From Chiloscyllium plagiosum (lineage: Eukaryota): a DNA stretch of 64,000 nt. The stretch lies in NCBI RefSeq assembly GCF_004010195.1, contig NC_057723.1:39902119-39966118 (forward strand), written 5' to 3'. Shown here piece after piece: positions 1 to 60,318 of this stretch (position 1 is its first letter; every line of letters starts with the position of its first letter). Both the position numbers and the translations under genes were made by a program. The notes below the pieces were generated by a model. The model was given only the letters and a program-made list of their open reading frames with translations, was not told where the DNA came from and did not search any database.

Positions 1-80
1 GCTTATGCCCGAAACGTCGATTCTCCTGTTCCCTGGATGCTGCCTGACCTGCTGCGATTTTCCAGCAACACATTTTCAGC
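1..80 (+). mobile_element. Penelope-like pLTR fragment (hammerhead stem II-GAAAC-GTC plus 3' part), cut by the window start and abutting an HE1 SINE tail
   Basis: gcttatgcccgaaacgtcgattctcctgttccctggatgctgcctgacctgctgc is nearly identical to 37344-37420; it joins HE1 3' sequence at about 80. Confidence 0.8.
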
Positions 81-218
81 TATGCTAAATTGCCCGTATT
101 GTTCGGTGAAGGGGTAAGTGTAGGGGAATGGGTCTGGGTGTGTTGCTCTTCAGAGGGTTGGTGTGGACTTGTTGGGCCGAAGGGCCTGTTTCCACACTGT
201 CGGGAATCTAATCTAAAT
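81..218 (+). mobile_element. HE1-type SINE, 3' half
   Basis: tatgctaaattgcccgt...ggacttgttgggccgaagggcctgtttccacactgt...aatctaatctaa matches the 3' half of the full copy at 3732-4050. Confidence 0.85.
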
Positions 219-3375: not shown

Positions 3376-3632
3376 TTGGCACCGCCCTCTTGGCCTGTCC
3401 ATCTTCCTTCCCACCTATCTGCTCCACCCTCCTCTCCAACCTATCACCACCCACCTAGCACCCCCCCCATTCCAGCTACCTTCCCCCAGCCACACCACCC
3501 TCCCATTTATCTCTCAACCCCCTGGCCCACAAGCCTCATTCCTGATGAAGGCCTTATGCCCAAAACGTCGATTTTCCTGTTCCTGGGATGCTGCCTGACC
3601 TGCTGTGCTTTTCCAGCACCACACTTGCGACC
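3376..3632 (+). mobile_element. PLE 3' region/pLTR with degenerate hammerhead motif
   Basis: C-rich stretch, then attc-CTGATGA-aggccttatgccc-AAAAC-GTC-gatt (3538-3573) and gatgctgcctgacctgctg...ttccagca. Confidence 0.8.
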
Positions 3633-4554: not shown

Positions 4555-7500
4555 CAGAAAGAACGGGACTCCTGGAAGGTATGTTGCCTCCCTCGTGCCA
4601 GGATCCGGGATGTCGCCGATCGGGTTTACAAGATTCTGAAGGGGAATGGTGAGCAGCCAAAAATCGTGGTACATATTGGCACCAATGATATAGCCAGGAA
4701 AGGGATTGAGGTTCTGAAAACCGACTACAGAGACTTAGGTAGGAAGCTGAAGAGCAGGATGAGTAGAGTAGTGATCTCAGGTTTGCTACCGGTGCCACGA
4801 GATAGTGAGATGAGGGACAGTCAGCGAATGCAGCTTAACACATGGCTGCGAGGCTGGAGCAGGAGGGAGGGCTTCAGATACCTAGACCATTGGGATACCT
4901 TCTGGGGAAGGTGGACCTGTACATGAAGGACGAGTCGCACCTGAACTGGAGGGGCACAAATCTCCTGGCTGGGAGATTTGCTTGTGTAATTCGAGAGGGT
5001 TTAAACTAGTTTGGCAGGGGGTGGGAATCAGAGCCACATGTCTGAGAGGGGTCAGTTGCAGATGGGGCAGTGACAGGATGTATTGAATCTGTCAGGAAGG
5101 TTTCTCACGTGATGAAACAAAGGGATCGGTTAAAATGTGTCTGCTTTAATGCAAGGAGTGTCTGAAATAAGAGTGATGAAGTTAGAGCATGGATCAGTAC
5201 TTGGGGCTACGATGTTGTGGCCATAACAGAGACGTGGGTTTCACAAGAGCAGGAACGCTTGCTAGATGTTCCAGGGTTTAGAACGTTTAAAAAGAACAGG
5301 GAGGGTGGAAAAAGAGGTGGGGGTGCAGCATTGCTAATCAGAGAGTGCATCACAGCTACAGAAACGAAGGTTGATGAGGAAGGTTTGTCCACTGAGTCAG
5401 TATGGGTGGAAGTTAGGAACAGCAAGGGAACAGCGACCGCAATGGGGGTTTTCTACAGACTACCAGCAGTAGAGACATTGAAGAACTCCTAGGCAGGCAG
5501 ATTCTGGAAAAATGCAGAAGTAGCAGGGTTGTTGTTATGGGTGATTTCAACTTTCCCAATATCAACTGGAACCTCCTAAGTGCAGATGGTTTGGATGGAG
5601 CCATTTTTGTCAGGTGTGTTCAGGGGGATTTCCTTACTCAGTATGTAGATAGACTGACGAGGGGAGAGGCCATTTTGGATTTGGTGCTCGGCAACGAGCC
5701 AGGACAGGTGTCAGACCTTGCGGTGGGAGAACACTTTGGTGACAGTGACCACAACTGCCTCACATTTAGCATAACCTTGGAGAGTGAAAGGAGCAGTTAC
5801 CGAGGGAAGATATTTAATTGGGGAAAAGGAAATTATGACACTATCAGACAGGAGTTGGGAAATATAGACTGGGAGTAATTGTTCCACAGAAAGGGCACGG
5901 CAGACATGTGGAGACTATGTAAGGAGCAGTTGTTGTGAGTGATGCACAAATTTGTTCCTCTGAGAGAGGTAAGAAGGGGTAAGATTCAGGAACCTTGGAT
6001 GATGAGAACAGAGGAGCTTCTCGTCAAAAGGAAGAGGGCAGTTTACATAAGGTGGACGAAGCAAGGATCTAGCACAGCTTTAGAAGATTACATGCTTGCT
6101 AGAAAGGAGCTCAGAAATGGACTGAGAAGAGTCAGGAGGGGGCATAAAAAAGGCTTGGCAAAAAGGATTAGGGAAAACCCAAAGGCGTTTTACTCATATG
6201 TGAGGAATAAGAGAATGATCAGGGAGAAGGTAGCGTCGATCAGGGATAGCGGAGGGAACTTGTGCATGGAATCTGAGCAGATAGGGGAAGCCCAAATGAG
6301 TTTTTTGCTTTGGTTTTCACCAAGGAAAGGGACCTTTTTTTTTAGGTTAGATTAGATTAGATTACTTACAGTGTGGAAACAGGCCCTTCGGCCCAACAAA
6401 TCCACACCGCCCCGCCGAAGCACAACCCACCCATACCCCTGCATTTACCCCTTACCTAACACTACGGGCAATTTAAAATGGCCAATTTACCTGACCTGCA
6501 CATCTTTGGATTGTGGGAGGAAACCGGAGCACCCGGAGGAAACCCACACAGACACGGGGAGAACATGCAAACTCCACACAGTCAGTCGCCTGAGGTGGGA
6601 ATTGAACCCAGGTCTCTGGCGCTGTGAGGCAGCAGTGCTAACCACTGTGCCACCGTGCCGCCCACAATTGTGATTGAAAACTTAGAGGAACTGGGATACA
6701 GTCTTGACTTGATGAAGTTGATGTGCTTGAAATTTTGGAAAACATTTAAGATTGATAAGTCCCCAGGGCCAGACCAGATTTATCCTAGGCTGCTCCGGGA
6801 AGTGAGAAATGAGGTTGCTAAGCCGCTGGCGAGGATGTTTGCCTCCTCACTCTCCAGGGGAGTCGTACCGGAGGATTGTAAGGAGGTGAATGTTGTTCAT
6901 CTTTTCAAGAAGGGTAACAGGGAAATCCCTGGCAATTACAGACCAGTCAGTCTTACGTCCATGGTCAGCAAAGTTTTGGAAAGAATTCTGCGGGATAGGA
7001 TTTATGACTATTTGGCAAAGCATAGTGTGATTAAAGACTTTTGTGGTTTTGTGAGGGGCAGGTCATACCTCACAAATCTTATTGAGTTCTTTGAGGAGGT
7101 GTCAAGACCGATCGACAAAGGTCAAGCAGTGGATGTGGTATATATGGACTTCAGCAAGGTATGTGATAAGGTTCCCCATGGTCGGCTAATTTTTAAAGTC
7201 AGGAAGTATGTGATACAGCGAGGTTTGGCTATCTGGATTCAGAATTGGCTGGCTGACAGAAGGCAAAGAGTGGTTGTAGATAGAAAGTATTCTGCCTGGA
7301 GGTCAGTGTTGAGTGGGATCCTGCAGGGCTCTGTTCTTGGGTCTCTGTTCTTTGTAGTTTTTATAAATGACTTGGATGAGGAGGTTGAGGGGTGGGTTAG
7401 TAAATTTGCAGATGACACAAGGCTGGAGGTGTCATCGATAGTATTGAGGGCTACTGCAGGCTGCAGCGGTACATAGACAGGATGCAGAGCTGGGCTGAGA

Positions 7501-13900: not shown

Positions 13901-14191
13901 ATACAGGCTAAGCAAAGACATGCCAGAGAATTCCTAGAGGCCTGGCACTCCAACCACAACACCATAAACAAACACATAGATCTAGATACCATCTATCAAC
14001 CCCTCAGAAAACGAACAGGAAATGACATCACTGCAAACCCCAGGAACCCCATCCAGGACAAACATATAAATAGAAAGCAGGAGACAACAGCTTCGCTTCA
14101 CTTGGAGGTCGCCACTGATGATGTTACCTAGCCAGGTAATGAAACGTCTGGATATCAAACCTACAGCTCAGCGAGCAAACCTACACCCTAA
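13901..14191 (+). mobile_element. 5'-truncated PLE (GIY-YIG C-terminus plus hammerhead) with 15-bp TSD
   Basis: QAKQRHAREFLEAWHSNHNTINKHIDLDTIYQPLR. TSD agtatacttatgagt (13886-13900) / agtatacttataagt (14192-14206). Confidence 0.88.
14112..14151 (+). ncRNA. Minimal type I hammerhead ribozyme motif (PLE-associated)
   Basis: CCA-CTGATGA-T-GTTACCT-agcc-AGGTAAT-GAAAC-GTC-TGG. Stem I CCA/TGG, 7-bp stem II, palindromic ACGT stem III, GUC triplet. Confidence 0.8.
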
Positions 14192-30200: not shown

Positions 30201-31350
30201 TCACCAAGTCAACACCATTACAAAGACTGATGCATATTCAGTTCCATGGTTGGAAGACTGTGTCAGGAAAGTGGGACAAGTGACTTACATTTCTAAGTTG
30301 GACTTGCTCAGAGGCTACTGGCAAGTACCTCTGTCAGAGAGAGCAAAGGCAATTTTGGCTTTCGTAACGCTAAATGGACTATATCAGCTCAATGTCATGC
30401 CATTTCATCCGAAAAACGCTCCAGCCACATTTCAGAGACTAACTAATAAGGTCATTGCCAGGTTGCCCAATTGTGTTGTTTACATGGATGACCTGGTGAT
30501 TTTTAGTCACTCATGGAAGGAACGTTTACGGCATTTATCGGACTTGTTCAATTGACTTCGGAAGGCAGGCTTTGTGGTAAACTTAACTAAAAGTGAATTT
30601 GCCAAAGCCCAAATCACCTTCCTGGGCCATGTTATTGGACATGGACAAATGGCCCCACGAGATGCGAAAACGAAAGTAGTTGGAGAAGGTCCTACAACAT
30701 CGATGAGAAAAGCAGTACTACGGTTCCTGGGATTGAGTGGATTTTACCAAAGGTTTGTGCTGAGCTTTAGCAACGTGGCTGCTCCACTCACCAAATTGTT
30801 TAAAAAAAAAAGGGCAAGAACAGTCAGTGGACAGTGGACTGTCAAAAGGCTTTTGACAGCCTAAAAACTGTGTTATCCACCGCCCCAGTATTAGCCACAC
30901 CAGATTACATGAAGCCTTTCAAGGTGGCTATCGACGCCAGTGATGTGGGTGTCGGTGTGGATGACGAGGGGATAGAAAGACCCATCCAGTATTTTTCTAG
31001 GAAGTTGAATGTTTATCAACAGAAATATTCAACAGTGGAGAAAGAGACTTTAAGCTTGGTGTTGGCATTACAACATTTCAGTGTTTATATTACCAGCAAT
31101 GCATCTGAGACAATCATATACACTGATCATGACCCATTGACATTTGTGAAAAAGTTAAGGACACAAATGTCAGACTGTTGAGATGGAGCTTGTTGTTGCA
31201 GCCGTTCAATTTGACAATTGTGCACGTGGCAGGCCGCGAAAACGTGATTGCAGGAGCACCGCACCGACCCCACATTACTGGCATCGATAACCACCTTTGT
31301 GTAATCAGGTGTGGCTAATACTGGGGCGGTGGTTAACACAGTTTTTAGAT
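27254..31350 (+). mobile_element. Gmr1-like Ty3/gypsy retrotransposon internal region (gag-PR-INT-RT-RH), pseudogenised, no LTRs
   Basis: E/K/R coiled coil and a degenerate CCHC knuckle (FHSNKLGHTESQCW, ~27820-27867). Protease ~28020-28330. Integrase: HELP..G, CQTCHTCQ, CVGPLPQTKSGNKY, TRFPEAIPL, IQSDQESNFTS (28640-29770). RT: DLLRGYWQVPL, VYMDDLVIFS (30000-30860). RNase H: AIDASD, YSTVEKETL, YTDHDPL (30900-31250). Confidence 0.9.
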
Positions 31351-32589
31351 GCTGTTGTATCGGGATAGTATATTAAGAGAAATAAATACCTGTTTTCTGT
31401 GACTAGGATCGGGAGTCCTAAAGGCAGTGTTGCTTGCCTGGTGCTCAGATTCAGGATACCTTATCTGTGCTGCAGAGGAACTTGGAGTGGGCGAGGACAG
31501 GTCCAGTTATCATTGTCCACATAGGTATCAATGATTTAGATAGAAGGAAGAAATAGTTGTTGCAGTGGGAGTATGAGCAGTCGGGAGCTAAATTAAAAGC
31601 AGAATCAAAAAGGTCATAGTTTCTGGATTACTTTTTGAACCGTGAACAAATTGGCACAGGCTCAGTAAGAGTAAAGAGGTAAATGTGGGGTCCAAATGAG
31701 AAATGAGTTCAAATTCATGTAAGATTAACTCCAGCACTGGGGTAAGATGGAGCTGTTCTGATTGGATTGACTCCACTTGAACCATGTTGATACAAGAGTA
31801 CTGGCAAATTGAATAAATAGGGTTGTGGATAGGGCTTTAGACTAAACCATTGTGGGGGGTGGGAGTTCAGTGGGTTCAGTTACATGGATAATTATGGAAT
31901 AAATTAAAGGAGGGGAGAATTAACAGATGTTTCCAGAGTTATTAATGTTTGCAGAACATGTAGTAAGATAGAAAGTATGGAAAGAGTAAGGATTACATCT
32001 TCAGGCACAGCAGATGAGGGGACAACTGTGAGAAGGAGACAGTCAAGGCAGGACTGAGGGTGTTGGACTTAAATACAGACAATATGGGAAACAAGGTAAA
32101 TGAGCTTGTTGCACACATTGAAATTGGCAAGTACGATGTTGTAGGCATTGCAGACATATGGCTGCAAGGGGATTAGGATTGGCAACTAAATGTCCAAGGA
32201 TATACATCCCTTCAAAAGGATAGCTAGATGGGCAGAGTGGATATGGGGTTTCCTTGTTAGTAATAAACAAAATTAAATCAATAGCAAGAAGTGCTACAGA
32301 GTCGGAAGCCATAAAATTCGTGTGGGGAGAGTTGAGGAACAGCAAAAGAAAGAAAGACCCTGATGAGAGTTGTGTCCAGGCCTCCTAGCAGTAGTCTGGA
32401 TGTAGGGAAAGGAAGAAAATAAATTAGGAGATGGAAAAGGTATGTGCGAAAGGCACCGACACAATAATCATGAGGGACTTCAATATGCAGGTGGGCTGAG
32501 TTCGTACGGATGTGAAGAAAAGGAATTTGGAGAATGTCTGTGAGATAGTTTTTTGGAGCAGCTTGTGGTAGAGCTCACTAGGGAATAGG

Positions 32590-33469
32590 AGAAAAGGAGG
32601 ATTGCAGATGCTGGAGGTCAGAGTTGAAAGGTTCGGTGCTCGAAAAGCATAACAGGTCAGGTAGCATCCGAGGAGCAGGGAGAATTGAGTTAACTTAACA
32701 AGGGAGTCGCAGAGGGAATGATTTCTGTGGAATGGAGAAGGAAATATATCTCTGGTGGTGGGGTCTGACTGTAGTTTGCGAAAATGGTGTGGAATGATGC
32801 ATTGCATCCAGAGATCGGTGGGGTGGAAGGTGATGACCAGGGGAGTTCTATCCCTGTTGCGGTTGGTTGGATGAGGTTCAAGAGCAGAAGTGCGAGAAGT
32901 GGAGGAGGTATGCTGGAGGATGTTGTTGACCATGGGGGAGGGGAAATTGTGGTCCTTGAAGTAGGACGCCATCTAGGATTTTCTGGAGTGGAGTTGCTCC
33001 TCCTGGGAGCAGATAAGGGGAGACGGAGGAACTAGGAGAAATGGATAGCGTTTTTCGAGGAGAGGGGGTGGGAGGAGGTGTAGACCAAGTAGCTGCGGGG
33101 GTAGATGGGTTTGAAGTAGATGTCTGTGTTGAGTCGGTCACTGCAAATGGAGGCGGAGAGGTCCAAGAAGCGGAGAGAGATATCCGGGATGGTCCAGGTG
33201 AACTTGAGGTCAGGGTGAAAGGTGTTCATAAAGTTGGTGAACTGTTAAACCTCCTTGTGCGACCGATACATTCATCAATATAGCAGAGGAAAAGGTGGGG
33301 AATGGTACCAGTGTAACTGCAGAAGATGGGCTGTTGGACTATCCGACGAAGAGGCAGACATAGCTGGGGCCCATGAGGTTTCCATGGCTACCCCTATTGT
33401 CTGAAGCAAGTGGGAGAATTCAAAGGAAAAGTTGTTGAGGATGAGGACCAGTTCAACCAATTGAATTCC
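32590..33469 (-). mobile_element. PLE (RT fragment plus pLTR tail) inserted into the CR1 APE region, with TSD
   Basis: LVELVLILNNFSF...QTIGVAM, FHPDLKFTW..SLRFLDL..DIYFKP..SYL.YTSSHP..KNAI, PLVITFHPT. TSD cactagggaatagg (32576-32589 / 33470-33483). Confidence 0.9.
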
Positions 33470-35342
33470 CACTAGGGAATAGGCAATAATGAATTTGGTG
33501 ATGTTTAATGAAGCAAACTGATTAGGGAGCTTAAGATAAAGGAAACGCTAGAAGGCAGTGACCATAATATGATAGAATTCACCGTGCAGTTTGAGAGGGA
33601 GAAGCTGGAATCTGATGTAACAGTACCACACTGAAGGTAATTACAAAGGCATGAGGAGGGAGCTGGCCAGAATTGATTGGAAGGGGATCCTAGTAGGGAA
33701 GACAGTGGAGTAGCAATGGCAGAGGTTTCTGGTGGTAATTCAAGAGGCACAGCAGAAATTCATCCCAAGGAAGAAGAACCAAAAGTAGGGGAGGATGAAG
33801 CAACCATGGCAGACAAAGGAAGTCAGGCACAGCATACAAACAAAAGAGAAAGCACACAATGTGGTGAAGATTAGTGAGAAGCCAGATAATTGGGAAGCCT
33901 TTAAAAACAAGCAGGGGACAACTAACAAGGCAATAAAGGAGAGGAAGATGAAATTTGAGACTCAGCTAGCTAGTAATATAAAAGAAGATTGCAAGAGTTT
34001 TTTTTAGATAGTTAAATGGTAAGTCTGGACATTGGACCACTGGAAATGAGATTGAATAAATAGTAATGGGGAACAAAGAAATGGCTAAGGAACTAAATAG
34101 ATACTTTGCATCAGTTTTCACAATGGAAAACACCAGCAGCATATCAGAACTTTGAGAGTCAGGGAGCAGAGGTGAGTCTGCCCAAGTCCCATCTGCCATT
34201 TCTTTACACACACTCCTCATCTGTTTGCAACACTATTTAACCCTCTACCTGTATTTATGTAATATGCAAATTTCACAACAATGCCCTCAGTTCCTTCATC
34301 CAGAACGGTAATGTATGACGTGAATAGTCGTGGTTTCAACACGAGGTCCTCTGACCTTCACTAGTCACCAGCTGCCATCCTGAAAAAGGATCCCTTTATC
34401 CCTACTCTCTGTATTTTTACAATCAGCCAATCCTCTCTTCATGCCAGGACCTTGCTCTTATCAGTATGGGCTCTTTCCTTGTTTAGCAGCCTCCTGTGAG
34501 GCACCTTGTCACAGGAATCCAAATAGATCACATCCACCGGATGTCCTTTATCTAACTTGCTCATTACCTCCTCAAAAAAATTCTAACAGATTTGATAGGC
34601 ATGACTTCCAAGTACCCTGCAATCTCATCCTTAACATTGGATTCTAAAATCTTACCAATGGCCAAAGTCATTCTAACTGGCCTTTAGTTTCCTGTCATCT
34701 GCCTCTCTCCATTCTTAAATAGGGATGTTACATTAGTCATTTTCCAGTCCTTTGTGATTCTCCTTGACTTCAGTGATTTCTGAAAGATCAGTATCAATGC
34801 CTCTCCAATCTCCTAGCTATCTCCTTCAGAATTCTGGGATGTAGTCTATCCAATGCGGGTGATTTATCTATCTCCAGATCTTACAGATTCCACAGCACTT
34901 TGTCCTTAGTAATGGCTACACTTAATCCCCTTACCAATCAAGAACCTATGTATTTCTGTCTCAAATACACTCGATGGCTTGGCTTTCACAGCCCTCTGCA
35001 ACAATGAGTTCTACAGATTGTTCTGTATTTTCTTAAGTAGAGTATTGCAGGTTCAGTTGGCAGTAAGAAAGGCAAATCCAATGTTACCATTCATTTCAAG
35101 AGGGCTAGAATGCAGGAGCGGGAAACAATGCTGAGGCTGTATAGGGCTCTGGTCAGACTGCATTTGGAGTTTCGTGAGCAATTTTGGGCCCAATATCTAT
35201 GGAAGGATCCATTGGCATTGTAGGGGGTTCAGAGGAAGTTTACACGAATAATCGCAGGATGAGGGGCTTGTGATATGAGGAGCGATTGAGGACTCTGGGT
35301 CTCTACTCAATGGAATTTAGAAAGATGAGTGGGGGGATGAAT

Positions 35343-35655
35343 GGGTGGCATGGTGGATCAGTGGTTAGCACTAATGCCTCACAGTGCCAGGAACCCAGGT
35401 TCGATTCCAGCCTCGGGCAACTGGCTGTGTGGAGTTTGCACATTCTCCCCATATCTGCATGGGTTTTCTCTGGGTCCTCTGGTTTCCTTCCACAGTCCAA
35501 AGATGTGTAGGTCAGGTGAATTGGTCATGCTAAATTGTATTAGGTGCATTAGTCAGAGGGAAATGGGTCTGGGTGAGTTACTCTTCAGAGGGTCGGTGTC
35601 GACTTGTTGGGCTGAAGGGCCTGTTTCTACACTGTAAGGGAATCTAATCTAATCT
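35343..35655 (+). mobile_element. HE1-type SINE, full length, inserted in the CR1 3' region
   Basis: gggtggcatggtggatcagtggttagc...ggttcgattcc...ctgtaagggaatctaatctaatct. Confidence 0.88.
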
Positions 35656-36363
35656 GACTGAAACTTACAGAATATTGAGAAGCCTGGATAGAGTGGACAT
35701 GGAAAACATGTTTCCATTAATAGGAGAAACTAGGATCTGAAGCCATAACCTCAGCCTTTTAGAACTGAGATGAGGAAGAATTTTGTCAGCAAGAGGATGG
35801 TTAATCTGTGGAACTCATTGCTGCCAAAGGCTGTGAAGGCCAAATCATTGAGTGTAGTTGAGACAGAGATACATAGGTTCTGCATTGGTAAGGGGATCAA
35901 GGATTAGGGGAGAAGGCAGCAGAATAGGGTTAAGAAACATTTGGGCATGATCGAGTGGCAGAGCGGGTGGGTCTAATGGCCAATTCTGCTCCTGTATCTT
36001 CACATAATGGCACAATATTTAAAGACAGTTCTAAACAAATAGCTTAATTTTCCAAATTAACAGGGATTCATTGTGCTTTTGTTTAAAACACATATGATTT
36101 GATCATTAATTCAAAACTAGTGCATGAAAAATGGAAGAAAATAGTTTGAAAAATACTTCATAGTCTGCTTTAACCACGAGCCATACCTATACAGGGCTAA
36201 GTTTCATTTTTAGTAAAAGACTTAGCAATACATGTGTTATGAGTTTCTTTCCTCGTAATGCTGTATTGTGAACAGTATCTAGTATGTGTCAGTAATCCAC
36301 ATAATACATGTCCCTGAATTCTTCAATAAATTGGCTTAATTGCATTTTCAAGTAATTAAAAAC

Positions 36364-36453
36364 AGGGTCACCGGATCCTAAACGTTATCTCTGATTTCTC
36401 CTTACAGATGCTGCCAGACCTGCTGAACTTTTCCAGCAATTTCTGTTTTTGTT
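36364..36453 (+). mobile_element. PLE pLTR remnant
   Basis: agggtcaccggatcctaaacgttatctctg...cagatgctgccagacctgctga...ttccagca; same family as 868-1078. Confidence 0.65.
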
Positions 36454-37213
36454 CAAGAAATCAACGTTGAATCTGTCAAGTTTCATTTGGTTGCTCAATT
36501 TGCACTTAAATTGTGCAAGTAATGGTACCCTGTGGTCAATTGAGATATATTTGACACAGCTTTGCAGTTCACAGAATATAATTCTGCAACCTGATGCAAT
36601 TGTTCACTTTATCATCTCTTTATGAGAAAACTCTGTTATGGCAGGATACCAATCATCAAAATTCTTTGTGAGCTGATAGTGTAGCTGTTCCCAAGCAAAG
36701 TTTCGGGACTTACCATCTCCCTGAGTTCATAGTTCATTTTGTTTTAACCGCATTCAATAACAAAGTCTACCTATTTGTAAAAACATGCATTGGAATTTCA
36801 TGTGTGCACATGTGTATATGTAAAACCAATGTACCTGGAAATAAAATTAAATATACAAGGTATATTGACTTCATTGTGCAATAGTAAATTTATTCCAGAG
36901 GTACTGCTGCAAATTAAACTGATGTCATATTGTTTTGTGGTGCCCCATTTAATTTAAAGCATTTTTCTCACAGTTATGAAATTGTAGTCTTGAAAACTTG
37001 TTCAGAGAAAATTGTGGAATAATGTCTTCTGCATAATTAAGACTTGTAAGATAAAACCTTGTCAACTGTCAATAGATTCCTCCAATTTTCTCTTACACGT
37101 TGAGGATCAAGACATGACTGTAATTTAGAACATGTGGCAGGCAGTAAAAATACATTGATAGTTAAATTCTTTACCTGAACTTCTAACTTTAGACAAAACA
37201 TTTCTGGAAAACT

Positions 37214-37419
37214 TTGAGGAGAAAGTGAGGTCTGCAGATGCTGGAGATCAGAGCTGGAAATGTGTTGCTGGAAAAGCGCAGCAGGTCAGGCAGCATCCAG
37301 GGAACAGGAGAATCGACGTTTCGGGCATAAGCCCTGAAGAAGGGCTTATGCCCGAAACATCGATTCTCCTGTTCCCTGGATGCTGCCTGACCTGCTGCGC
37401 TTTTCCAGCAACACATTTC
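37214..37419. mobile_element. Young palindromic PLE pLTR insertion with perfect 15-bp TSD
   Basis: 81-bp arms 37255-37335 / 37341-37421 with one mismatch and a 5-nt loop gaaga. TSD catttctggaaaact (37199-37213 / 37420-37434). Hammerhead core CTGAAGA-agggcttatgccc-GAAAC-ATC at 37334-37361. Confidence 0.92.
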
Positions 37420-38324
37420 CATTTCTGGAAAACTAGTGTGCTTATCCTATAGGGAATGAATGAGCAAGAATTAAACAGAACTTGTAGTATTTCTCAATGT
37501 CAGGAATGTAGAACAAGAGAGAGCTATGTAAACACAAATCAGAATTCTGTTGTTATACTTCTTGGAGCAATTACTTTCCAAACCCCAAAACATTGCCTGG
37601 AGGATGCAGTGCCCTTTGCATTTGACATTAAGTATTTACGTAGCAAATATCCTCACCATTATATTCTGTTCATATTCTCATTGACAATGATACTTCTCAT
37701 AAATAACACTGCCCTTTGTGGTCTATAAGATGATGTTAATATTACAATAGACTCGTGAATTCTGACTAGCTGCTTGTTGTTACAAGACAGAGCATCATCC
37801 AAGATGAGTTTTAAATGATTGCCACCGGATAATTTGCCAAGCAAAACAATTGAATTGCAGCATATTTCTTGGTTTGAGTTGCTGATCTTCTCTGCAATTG
37901 AGAATAACATCATAGAGCTGGTTAATGCACTCTTGAATGGTTCAAATAAATGCAATGACCCTCAAACAATTTTTGTTCATCTACACCATATTGTTAATTG
38001 GATAAAATAATGAATTTATTTTGTCACTGTAATAATCCAGTAACATTGCTAATGTCCTTATTAAATAGATGAATGAAGTTAGGTTTTTCTCTTTCTTCTC
38101 TAGGTAAGTGTTATGTGGTTCAATTTCAGATTGTGCCTTCAGCTTGTTTAATAAATGTACAGTCAGCAAAATCACCATTAAGTTGGAGACAGCAGATTCT
38201 TTACAGTCTCATATGCATGTCAATTACCTGTTAACGGATTTCTTTCCAGCTGTTAACTTCATAACCTCCAATCTTTATTGAAGATACATTACGTCCAGTT
38301 TGACATCAATAAGTTATTGGCTCT

Positions 38325-39792: not shown

Positions 39793-40530
39793 GGATGTAG
39801 CTTTGCTCGCTGAGCTGGAAGGTTCATTTCCAGACGTTTCATCACCTTACTAGGTAACATCTTCAGTGGGTCTCAGGCGAAGCACTGCTGATAATTCATG
39901 CTTTCTATTTATATGTTTGGGTTTCTTTGGGTTGGTTTCCTGTGGTGATGTCATTTCCTGTGGTGAAGTCACTTTCTGTTCCTTTTCTCAGGGGGTAGTA
40001 GATGGGGTCTAACTCGATGTGTTTGTTGACAGAGTTCCGGTTGGAATGCCATGTTTCTCGGAATTCTCATGTGTGTCTTTGTTTGGCTTGTCCTAGGATG
40101 AATGTGTTGTCCCAGTCGAAGTGGTGTCCTTCCTCATCCATATGTAAGGACACTAGTGAGAGAGGGTCATGTATTTTTGTGGCTAGTTGGAGTTCATGTA
40201 TCCTGGTGGCTAGTTTTCTGCCTGTTTATCCAATGTAGTGTTTGTTACAGTCCTTGCACATATTTTATAAATAACATTAGTTTTGTTTGTGGTCTGAATA
40301 GGGTCTTTCAAGTTCATTAGCTGCTGTTTTAGTGTGTTGGTGGGTTTGTGGGCTACCATGATGCCAAGGGGTCTGGGTAGTCTGGTAGTCATTTCCGAGA
40401 TGTCTTTGATGTAGGGGAGAGTGGCTAGGGTTTCTGGACGTGTTTTGTCTGCTTGTTTGGGTTTGTTGCTGAGAAATCAGCGGACTGTGTTCATTGGGTA
40501 CGCATTCTTTTTGAATACACAGTATAGGTG
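39793..40530 (-). mobile_element. PLE 3' portion (GIY-YIG plus hammerhead), same family as 13901-14191
   Basis: RLPRPLGIMVAHKPTNTLKQQLMNLKDPI...NVIYKI.C...YIG; REFRETWHSN. Hammerhead CCA-CTGAAGA-tgttacctagtaaggtgat-GAAAC-GTC-TGG at 39830-39869 (minus). Confidence 0.88.
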
Positions 40531-55639: not shown

Positions 55640-56470
55640 AGCTTGAACAAAGGAAGATGGTTGTAGTTGTTGGAGGCCAGTCATCTCAGTGCCAGGAAAT
55701 AAAGCTTCAGCAGTCCCTTAGGGCAGTGTTTTTGGCCCAGTCATTTAATCGTTATTCTTTCTAGCAAGAGGAATGGAGTACAAAAGTAGGGAGGTTATGT
55801 TTTAGTTATGTGGCATTGGCAAGACCACGTATGAAGCACTGTGCACAGTACTAGTCTCCTATTTAAGGAAGGATTTAATTGCATTGGAAGCAATTCAGAG
55901 AAAGTTTATTACACCAGCACCTGGAATGATTGTCTTATGAGGAAGTGTTAGACAGGCTAGATTGTAATCTGCTTGAGTTTAAAGTGTAAGAGCTAACTTG
56001 ATTGAAACATTTAAGATCTGAGGATGAGAACAGTTGGATGTAGAAAGGGTGTTTCTTTTTGTGGGAGAATCTAGATTTAGCAGTCAGTGTTTACGAATAA
56101 GAAGCTGTCTATTTAATATGAAGAAGAGAATGTTTCTCACGTAGAAGGTCGCAAATCTTTAGAACTCTCTTCCTCAAATGGCAGAGGTGGATAGATTCTT
56201 GGCAAAAGTGGGTACTGCAGATGCTGGAGATTAGAGTCAAGATTAGAGTGGTGCTGGAAAAGCACAGCAGGTCAGACAGCATCCGAGGAGCAGGAAATCG
56301 ATGTTTCAGGCAAAAGTCCTTCATCAGGAATGAGCCTGGATATATTCTGGATAAGCAAGGAGGCAAAAGATTATTGGGGCTAAGCAGATGTGGAATAATC
56401 GAATCAGTCACAATCTGGTGAGGCAAACTCGAGAAGCTGAGTGGTAATTCCTGTTCCAAACTTGTAGGTT
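55640..56470 (+). mobile_element. CR1-group fragments (RT and 3' end), interrupted by a PLE pLTR
   Basis: QRKMVVVVGGQSSQ...VP*GSVFGP; tatttaaggaaggatttaattgcattggaagcaattcagaga; 3' UTR. Confidence 0.7.
56202..56336 (-). mobile_element. Solo PLE pLTR with hammerhead motif and ~14-bp TSD
   Basis: Minus strand ATTC-CTGATGA-aggacttttgcct-GAAAC-ATC-GATT (56296-56331). TSD tggatagattcttg (56188-56201) / tggatatattctgg (56337-56350). Confidence 0.8.
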
Positions 56471-60179: not shown

Positions 60180-60318
60180 TGAAGAAAGTGAGGACTGCAG
60201 ATGCTGGAGATCAAAGTCAAAACGTGTGGTGCTGGAAAAGCACAGTAGGTCAGATAGCATCCAAGGAGCAGGAGAGTTGACATTTTGAGCATAAGCTCCT
60301 CAAGTTCCTGATGAAGAC
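60180..60318 (-). mobile_element. PLE pLTR with a short inverted piece at the hammerhead
   Basis: Antisense pLTR (gaggactgcagatgctggaga...gagcataagctcctca) directly followed by sense ttcCTGATGAag. tcacatg occurs on both sides (60169-60175 / 60319-60325). Confidence 0.7.

Follow-up and report, generated by a model that had tools for sequence, protein, structure and literature searches.

A palindrome of about 200 bp without open reading frames, joined inside a hammerhead ribozyme motif, lies at positions 37199–37434 of a 64-kb stretch of the Chiloscyllium plagiosum genome (contig NC_057723.1; hereafter the window). It raises the question of whether such a unit belongs to a class of hairpin retroelements that propagate as such, or is the product of one insertion event by a Penelope-like element (PLE). 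All pLTR offsets below are given relative to the predicted cleavage nucleotide, which was set to 0.

Anatomy of the insertion

The insert comprises 206 bp (37214–37419) and is flanked by two identical 15-mers, i.e., the left (37199–37213) and right (37420–37434) copies of a target site duplication (TSD), which agree at 15/15 positions and whose sequence is unique within the 64-kb window; an exact terminal 15-mer repeat was obtained for 0 of 20,000 random 206-nt spans. The two arms (37255–37335 and 37341–37421) pair at 80 of 81 positions, the sole mismatch (37317 C/37359 A) being a CpG-type change, and the final 2 nt of the right arm (37420–37421) are bases of the TSD, so that 79 nt of this arm are within the insert. 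A one-sided tail of 41 nt (37214–37254, minus strand) is carried by the left arm. An earlier sequence-only reading of the locus had described near-perfect 81-bp arms, one of them with a tail of about 40 nt, and a TSD of two identical 15-mers, all of which were recovered. Its views that both arms copy one RNA segment and that this was a young single insertion are likewise supported. The flanks are without mirror symmetry, and when an empty site was sought within the 64-kb window, the focal flanks matched only themselves.

Both arms are 5′-truncated sense copies of one repeat, placed head-to-head and facing outward from their 5′ ends. The left, tail-bearing arm (37255–37335, minus strand) has its 5′ end at about −20 and keeps stem II and the cleavage triplet, without the CUGANGA core. 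The right, tail-less arm (37341–37419, plus strand) has its 5′ end at about −28 and its 3′ end at +58 (+60 counting the 2 nt in common with the TSD), which corresponds to the proximal start site. The tail covers the repeat from the proximal to the distal 3′ end class (see below) and terminates outward at +101, which corresponds to the distal start site; the same end is found in the copies at 32590, 56202, 60180, and 62131. Between the arms lies a 5-nt spacer (37336–37340, plus strand), which represents G5–A9 of the hammerhead core (starting at 37334), as read earlier, and is continuous with the tail-less arm. The join inside the hammerhead also stands, and the microhomology, previously given as 4 nt (ccct/aggg), is reduced to 3 nt (CCT/AGG; 37333–37335) assignable to either arm; this length was judged against three older copies which keep upstream sequence (3541, 56328, and 62005), the young subfamily's own upstream sequence being absent from the window.

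At 37414–37425, the 6 nt that close the right arm recur in tandem as the first 6 nt of the TSD, possibly by primer realignment at the proximal start site, or by chance. As RNA, the focal hairpin folds at −189 kcal/mol (z = −24.6), with 0 of 200 shuffles being equally stable. In a search for a host gene, none of the 123 ORFs of at least 45 aa between 33.6 and 47 kb matched Pfam; outside this interval, the Pfam scan covered 5 of the 140 listed longer ORFs. Translation of the focal insert in one frame gives a match to a C. plagiosum protein.

Assignment to an endonuclease-bearing Penelope-like element

A related copy at 32576–33483 (minus strand) consists of a PLE RT fragment fused to the tail-bearing end of the pLTR within a 14-bp TSD (32576–32589/33470–33483). 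The RT fragment of this copy (32590–33469) has 60–65% identity to three Chiloscyllium punctatum proteins with an RVT_1 match and weak C-terminal GIY-YIG matches, the latter below the Pfam cut-off, and the pLTR of the copy is identical to the focal left arm at 72 of 100 positions. Because the RT fragment joins the same tail-bearing end inside one TSD, the repeat represents the pLTR of an endonuclease-bearing (EN+) PLE, which supports the PLE origin proposed before. The tie to RT and GIY-YIG holds for the pLTR family via the 32590 copy, not inside the focal locus; at the focal locus itself, the minimal hammerhead motif, the one-sided tail, and a head-to-head inverted 5′-truncated copy inside the TSD were found as EN+ PLE traits. 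A CX2-5CxxC linker before the C-terminal GIY-YIG domain marks Neptune/Nematis elements (PMC8557442). One C. punctatum homologue (P0002) carries a CX4CxxC linker, the window copy being deleted before the linker position, and the source element was, judged from these sequences, probably an EN+ PLE of the Neptune type. In the 32590 copy, the junction of RT fragment and pLTR lies near the cleavage site, all within the 14-bp TSD; this copy could derive from ribozyme-cleaved RNA and a subsequent template jump.

The focal insertion is a real, young, and minimal PLE product of known layout. Head-to-head inverted pLTRs, one-sided tails, TSDs, and overlap at the junction are typical of PLEs (PMC3846280, PMC8557442). 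In PMC3846280, ORFs are flanked by an inverted pLTR overlapping the direct pLTR by 15 bp, with a 31-bp tail and TSDs of 8–10 bp, the head-to-head orientation is usual, and self-priming is proposed; in PMC8557442, inverted 5′-truncated copies and one-sided tails are described as typical, their mechanism being called undefined. Pen2a_Av and Pen2_Av share with the focal unit a head-to-head inverted 5′-truncated pLTR, a tail at one end, and a TSD (PMC3846280, PMC8557442), and Pen2a_Av also an overlap at the inverted junction (15 bp), whereas the focal unit has no ORF between the repeats, its arms of less than 125 nt meet inside the hammerhead, and its TSD is 15 bp long instead of 8–10 bp. Animal non-LTR retrozymes are likewise ORF-less, pLTR-related, hammerhead-bearing, and dependent on PLE proteins, but they are built as tandems of head-to-tail units, have two or more intact hammerheads, and are defined by a circular RNA intermediate as well (bioRxiv 10.64898/2026.07.22.740005), while the focal unit is head-to-head with none intact.

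State of the hammerhead motif

A CUGANGA...GAAAC motif is located at 37334–37358, within a minimal type I hammerhead motif (37334–37361, plus strand) which is disabled at the focal locus. The motif scan yielded 5 occurrences in the window vs. 0.99 expected, and the motif is also present in the copies at 3541, 56327, and 62006. The core described earlier was recovered, with the addition of a bulged A before stem II that had been omitted. Metazoan PLE minimal hammerheads have the same build as the focal family, i.e., CUGANGA, a bulged nucleotide, stem II, GAAA, and a palindromic helix III (PMC4209133). Rfam at gathering score returned 0 matches for the whole window, and at E-values up to 10, 14 weak matches were obtained for the focal locus, 0/14 of them a hammerhead; the hammerhead call rests on the motif scan and the published description of minimal hammerheads (PMC4209133), and ribozyme cleavage is putative. 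Dispersed metazoan PLE hammerheads are mostly solitary truncated copies, and opposite-strand pairs 100–700 bp apart are described in Schistosoma (PMC4209133); the focal unit differs from these in that its two copies have a single core in common, at which they overlap, and in that the motif is disabled.

On the plus strand, the arm mismatch at 37359 changes G16.2, which adjoins the cleavage site, to A, breaking a helix III pair as well as the palindrome. The 5′ strand of helix I is replaced by the inverted arm, leaving 1 adjacent pair vs. 2 in 3/3 native copies, and forcing stem II with an open core costs 27 kcal/mol relative to the hairpin (crude constraint). The minus strand of the unit is without a CUGANGA core. 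The focal unit is hammerhead-centred, yet encodes no working hammerhead, and an active ribozyme at this locus was rejected, G16.2 being changed, helix I cut, and stem II locked in the hairpin. Hammerheads with a helix I of 3 bp and a longer stem II mark a different repeat family, observed at 14115–14148 (plus strand) and 39833–39866 (minus strand); no inverted partner was seen for it, and the 14115 copy has an 11-bp TSD candidate.

Copies of the pLTR in the window

Eleven pLTR segments at nine loci were detected in the 64-kb window by blastn and profile search. In the profile search for further copies in the window, 11 of 24 rows were significant, all of them training copies, the next having an E-value of 0.12. 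The 3′ ends of all 11 segments are bimodal, with five proximal (+57, +58, +63, +65, and +68) and six distal ends (+97, +98, +98, +99, +101, and +101). Ten 5′ ends were readable, the copy at 1–81 being outside this count as it is cut by the window edge; 8/10 lie between about −36 and −1 and 2/10 more than 100 nt upstream, as judged by eye with two pLTR subfamilies lacking a long copy in the window. None of the ten lies 3′ of the cleavage site. Seven of the eight short 5′ ends take in sequence 5′ of the cleavage site; in the remaining one, the 32590 copy, the join is at about −1. The direct-only copies 56202–56336 and 36361–36451 are among these eight, and the idea of ribozyme-defined ends is contradicted both by the seven ends passing the cleavage site and by direct-only copies ending in the same region, the focal hammerhead moreover being disabled. 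Candidate TSDs of the direct-only copies match at 11/12 (56202–56336) and 11/13 (36361–36451) positions, TSD scores like those of the copies at 36361 and 60180 were reached by 17 of 300 random spans, and the copies at 3541 and 62005 yielded no TSD. Tail-less ends without an inverted partner occur in copies 3541–3626 and 36361–36451. In a long copy, a pyrimidine-rich stretch ending in AG (3500–3540) was observed about 37 nt before the cleavage site; that this might serve as a splice acceptor close to the starting point of the short copies is speculative.

A second, older palindrome of a related pLTR family is present at 858–1093 (insert 868–1078), with arms at 868–950 and 968–1050 (77/83 paired), a 17-nt spacer, a tail of 28 nt (1051–1078), and a TSD matching at 14/15 positions (858–872/1079–1093). 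Both palindromes combine a tailed arm with a tail-less one; in each, the tail-less arm extends further in the 5′ direction and includes the spacer. The overlap of the outer tail-less end with the target amounts to 2 nt in the focal unit and to about 5 nt in the 868 copy. Additionally, a tail-bearing copy at 60180–60316 (minus strand) has an inverted core piece at its 5′ end, i.e., 12 nt (60305–60316; offsets −30 to −19) abutting the tailed copy 60180–60304; all remaining 12-mer matches to the core in the window were inside pLTR copies. This mini-inversion resembles short twin priming, a fold-back, or a decayed palindrome, and its 7-bp TSD candidate is weak. The three inverted junctions, which belong to different subfamilies, all differ (−20/−28 in the focal unit, about −9 to −6/−31 in the 868 copy, and about −25/−30 at 60305). 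The earlier proposal to map junctions against the core, applied to the window, hence gave all three inside the hammerhead at positions which are not identical. The sole same-subfamily copy in the window (1–81) is identical to the focal unit at 79/81 positions and has a tail-less end at +63, 3–5 nt from the focal tail-less end; it may be half of another palindrome.

Other repeats were noted in the window. By eye, a local inverted duplication of about 100 nt lies inside apparent LTR-retrotransposon pol sequence (30856–31355), and LINE-like fragments in opposite orientation, separated by about 900 nt, enclose a tRNA-SINE-like element (34921–35901). A decayed LINE with AP-endonuclease and RT Pfam matches spans 5417–7476.

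Proposed mechanism

We regard the palindrome as a minimal, ORF-less, one-event product of an EN+ PLE, made anew by priming from two target strands at two start sites, with a probability of roughly 0.6. The GIY-YIG nuclease would nick both target strands 15 bp apart, as the TSD suggests, and each nicked 3′ end would prime reverse transcription on uncleaved PLE RNA, priming at the distal start site giving the tail-bearing arm and priming at the proximal site, 41 nt further in, giving the tail-less arm. Both cDNAs would halt in the hammerhead region, the usual cDNA end for this pLTR family, and would be joined end to end via the 3-nt microhomology; alternatively, the longer, tail-less cDNA might first fold back on itself and be extended, the extended part then annealing to the tailed cDNA. 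Fill-in would then yield palindrome and TSD. Priming of cDNA from each target strand, as suggested earlier, is retained in this scheme, and the two separate RNAs once invoked are needless, since one RNA with two start sites would suffice, the leading RT running further 5′. The number of RNAs, the order of events, and the cause of the cDNA stop are what we infer; cDNA ends at −28 to −36 might reflect RNA structure, transcript start, or intron end. PLE transcription start sites have been placed within the pLTR, and an intron end was mapped to helix I in D. virilis, according to the published accounts.

The protein of PAc, a Poseidon element of Anolis carolinensis, cleaves and extends both target strands in vitro, reverse transcription begins at two internal sites bounding the tail, dimerisation of the protein is predicted, and insertion proceeds normally with hammerhead mutants (PMC11167929). 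PAc resembles the focal family in having two 3′ end classes around a 30–40 nt tail downstream of a minimal hammerhead, and its template is uncleaved by the ribozyme (PMC11167929), as in our reading. The two 3′ end classes of the focal family match the two RT start sites published for this anole element, and if each strand used one PAc-like start site, the focal anatomy would be predicted. Counting against this, the focal element probably belongs to another clade, as a C. punctatum homologue has the CX4CxxC linker, and PAc evidence is from an in vitro system, an inverted, palindromic product not being among the results in the accessible part of PMC11167929. Furthermore, the 32590 copy joins at about the cleavage site, fitting a cleaved template, and only two full palindromes are available, for which both being mixed-arm, or both having the same polarity, has p = 0.25 under independent priming.

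Alternative explanations

Two separate RNAs might be held in a hammerhead dimer via the helix III palindrome, with RT stopping where the RNAs pair. Minimal hammerheads have been proposed to work as dimers (PMC4209133), the PAc protein is likewise a predicted dimer (PMC11167929), both arms carry the same segment, and the junctions are within the hammerhead, but direct-only copies halt in the same region and 7/8 short 5′ ends read through the pairing site. Arm divergence fits age (1/81 with TSD 0/15; 6/83 with TSD 1/15) and gives no sign of two sources, and the insertion of PAc is unchanged by the catalytic hammerhead mutants (PMC11167929), a result that bears on catalysis and not directly on dimer pairing. 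We consider this unlikely; as the palindromes number two and their shared polarity is a 1-in-4 chance, the one-RNA and two-RNA variants are not separable by polarity.

Self-priming, in which antisense RNA or cDNA folds back at the hammerhead, the hairpin integrates, and a nuclease trims one strand to leave the tail, has been proposed for head-to-head PLE repeats (PMC3846280), with nuclease resolution offered as the source of the tail (PMC8557442), and is compatible with the near-identical arms and with the 12-nt inversion at 60305–60316 as a short fold-back. The plain fold-back at stem II considered previously fails, because it is the shorter arm that holds the spacer, and a tail absent from the template could not arise in its copy: in 2/2 palindromes, the spacer is continuous with the tail-less arm, and the copy would be longer than its template unless extra trimming occurred. 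In addition, tail-less ends also occur in the partner-less copies 3541–3626 and 36361–36451, as a start site predicts, and two start sites account for the tail (PMC11167929). Self-priming is therefore improbable.

A non-autonomous element, whose master hairpin would be transcribed and re-inserted whole by PLE proteins, would agree with an ORF-less, young unit with a clean TSD and with two palindromes in 64 kb, and non-autonomous PLE derivatives are known (MRC1; animal retrozymes). Against it, junctions differ at 3/3 loci, which remains compatible with one master per subfamily, and the same-subfamily copy 1–81, cut by the window edge, ends at +63 and not at +58 to +60. The hairpin fold of such an RNA would hold the proximal start site as well as stem II in double-stranded form, the 27 kcal/mol given above being the price of folding stem II, and both outer ends are start sites of ordinary copies. 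The propagating hairpin class put forward in the sequence-only reading is thus unsupported in the window, because junctions differ (a weak test across different subfamilies), non-inverted copies end alike, and outer ends are ordinary; we hold a master hairpin to be very improbable. It is unlikely that two paired RNAs operate in an asymmetric shark PLE complex with the hammerhead as dimerisation and stop signal instead of a catalyst, or that some palindromes propagate themselves; were either the case, the PLE hammerhead, conserved but weakly active, would have a function, and the inverted pLTR would be accounted for.

That the palindrome arose in the assembly, that two insertions occurred independently, or that the DNA was later duplicated in inverted orientation is barely credible: tandem and inverted PLE structures are troublesome for assemblies (PMC8557442), but both arms are within one exact TSD, the flanks are unmirrored, the tail is one-sided, the mismatch is of CpG type, and the palindrome at 868–1078 shows this design in an older, diverged form. 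A second junction was sought via predicted proteins across the palindrome, with 0 candidates in the plus frame and 0/12 in the minus frame. A representative protein library gave three matches, of which one is a C. plagiosum protein reading native antisense pLTR with no junction, the other two being considered by name only.

MITEs and other TIR DNA transposons have inverted repeats at both termini and a short fixed TSD; this identity was rejected based on the 41-nt one-sided tail, TSDs of 12–15 bp across copies, and arms which are a retroelement pLTR. In L1 twin priming, both target strands prime, the products are joined by microhomology, and the TSD is kept, with the inversion affecting an upstream, largely non-overlapping segment. 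The mini-inversion at 60305–60316 resembles this, whereas the focal insert duplicates one segment in both arms instead of a separate upstream piece, and classical twin priming was rejected. Further rejected were a miRNA precursor (best Rfam score 43.9 bits vs. a cut-off of 104, structure-only) and a non-LTR retrozyme (head-to-head orientation; one disabled core on the plus and no core on the minus strand). A scan of prokaryotic genomes with a 19-nt pLTR motif, meant to reveal contaminating host DNA, returned at least 120 loci with a longest alignment of 26 nt among the matches listed, which is attributable to chance. Eulor palindromes were dismissed as PLE-derived relatives, Eulor5/6 being placed in Crypton (PMC5753468).

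Significance

An inverted pLTR with a one-sided tail and a TSD is the published PLE layout, and taken singly, the focal locus is a truncated insertion of the ordinary kind. In openly accessible papers, no account came up of ORF-less palindromes with their junction within the hammerhead, nor of such palindromes in sharks. How the inverted pLTR is formed and how the second strand is joined are stated to be unresolved for PLEs in PMC8557442 and PMC11167929. ORF-less palindromes of about 200 bp hold both priming sites, the junction, and the TSD within one short read. Two palindromes per 64 kb correspond to about 30 per Mb, which, if the window is typical, would mean very many per shark genome and counts sufficient to separate the one-RNA, two-RNA, and fold-back models. 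Long perfect hairpins of this kind are open to misfiling as MITEs or miRNA precursors, and they would give double-stranded RNA if transcribed. As short and clean copies, they could help to show how PLEs finish inserting.
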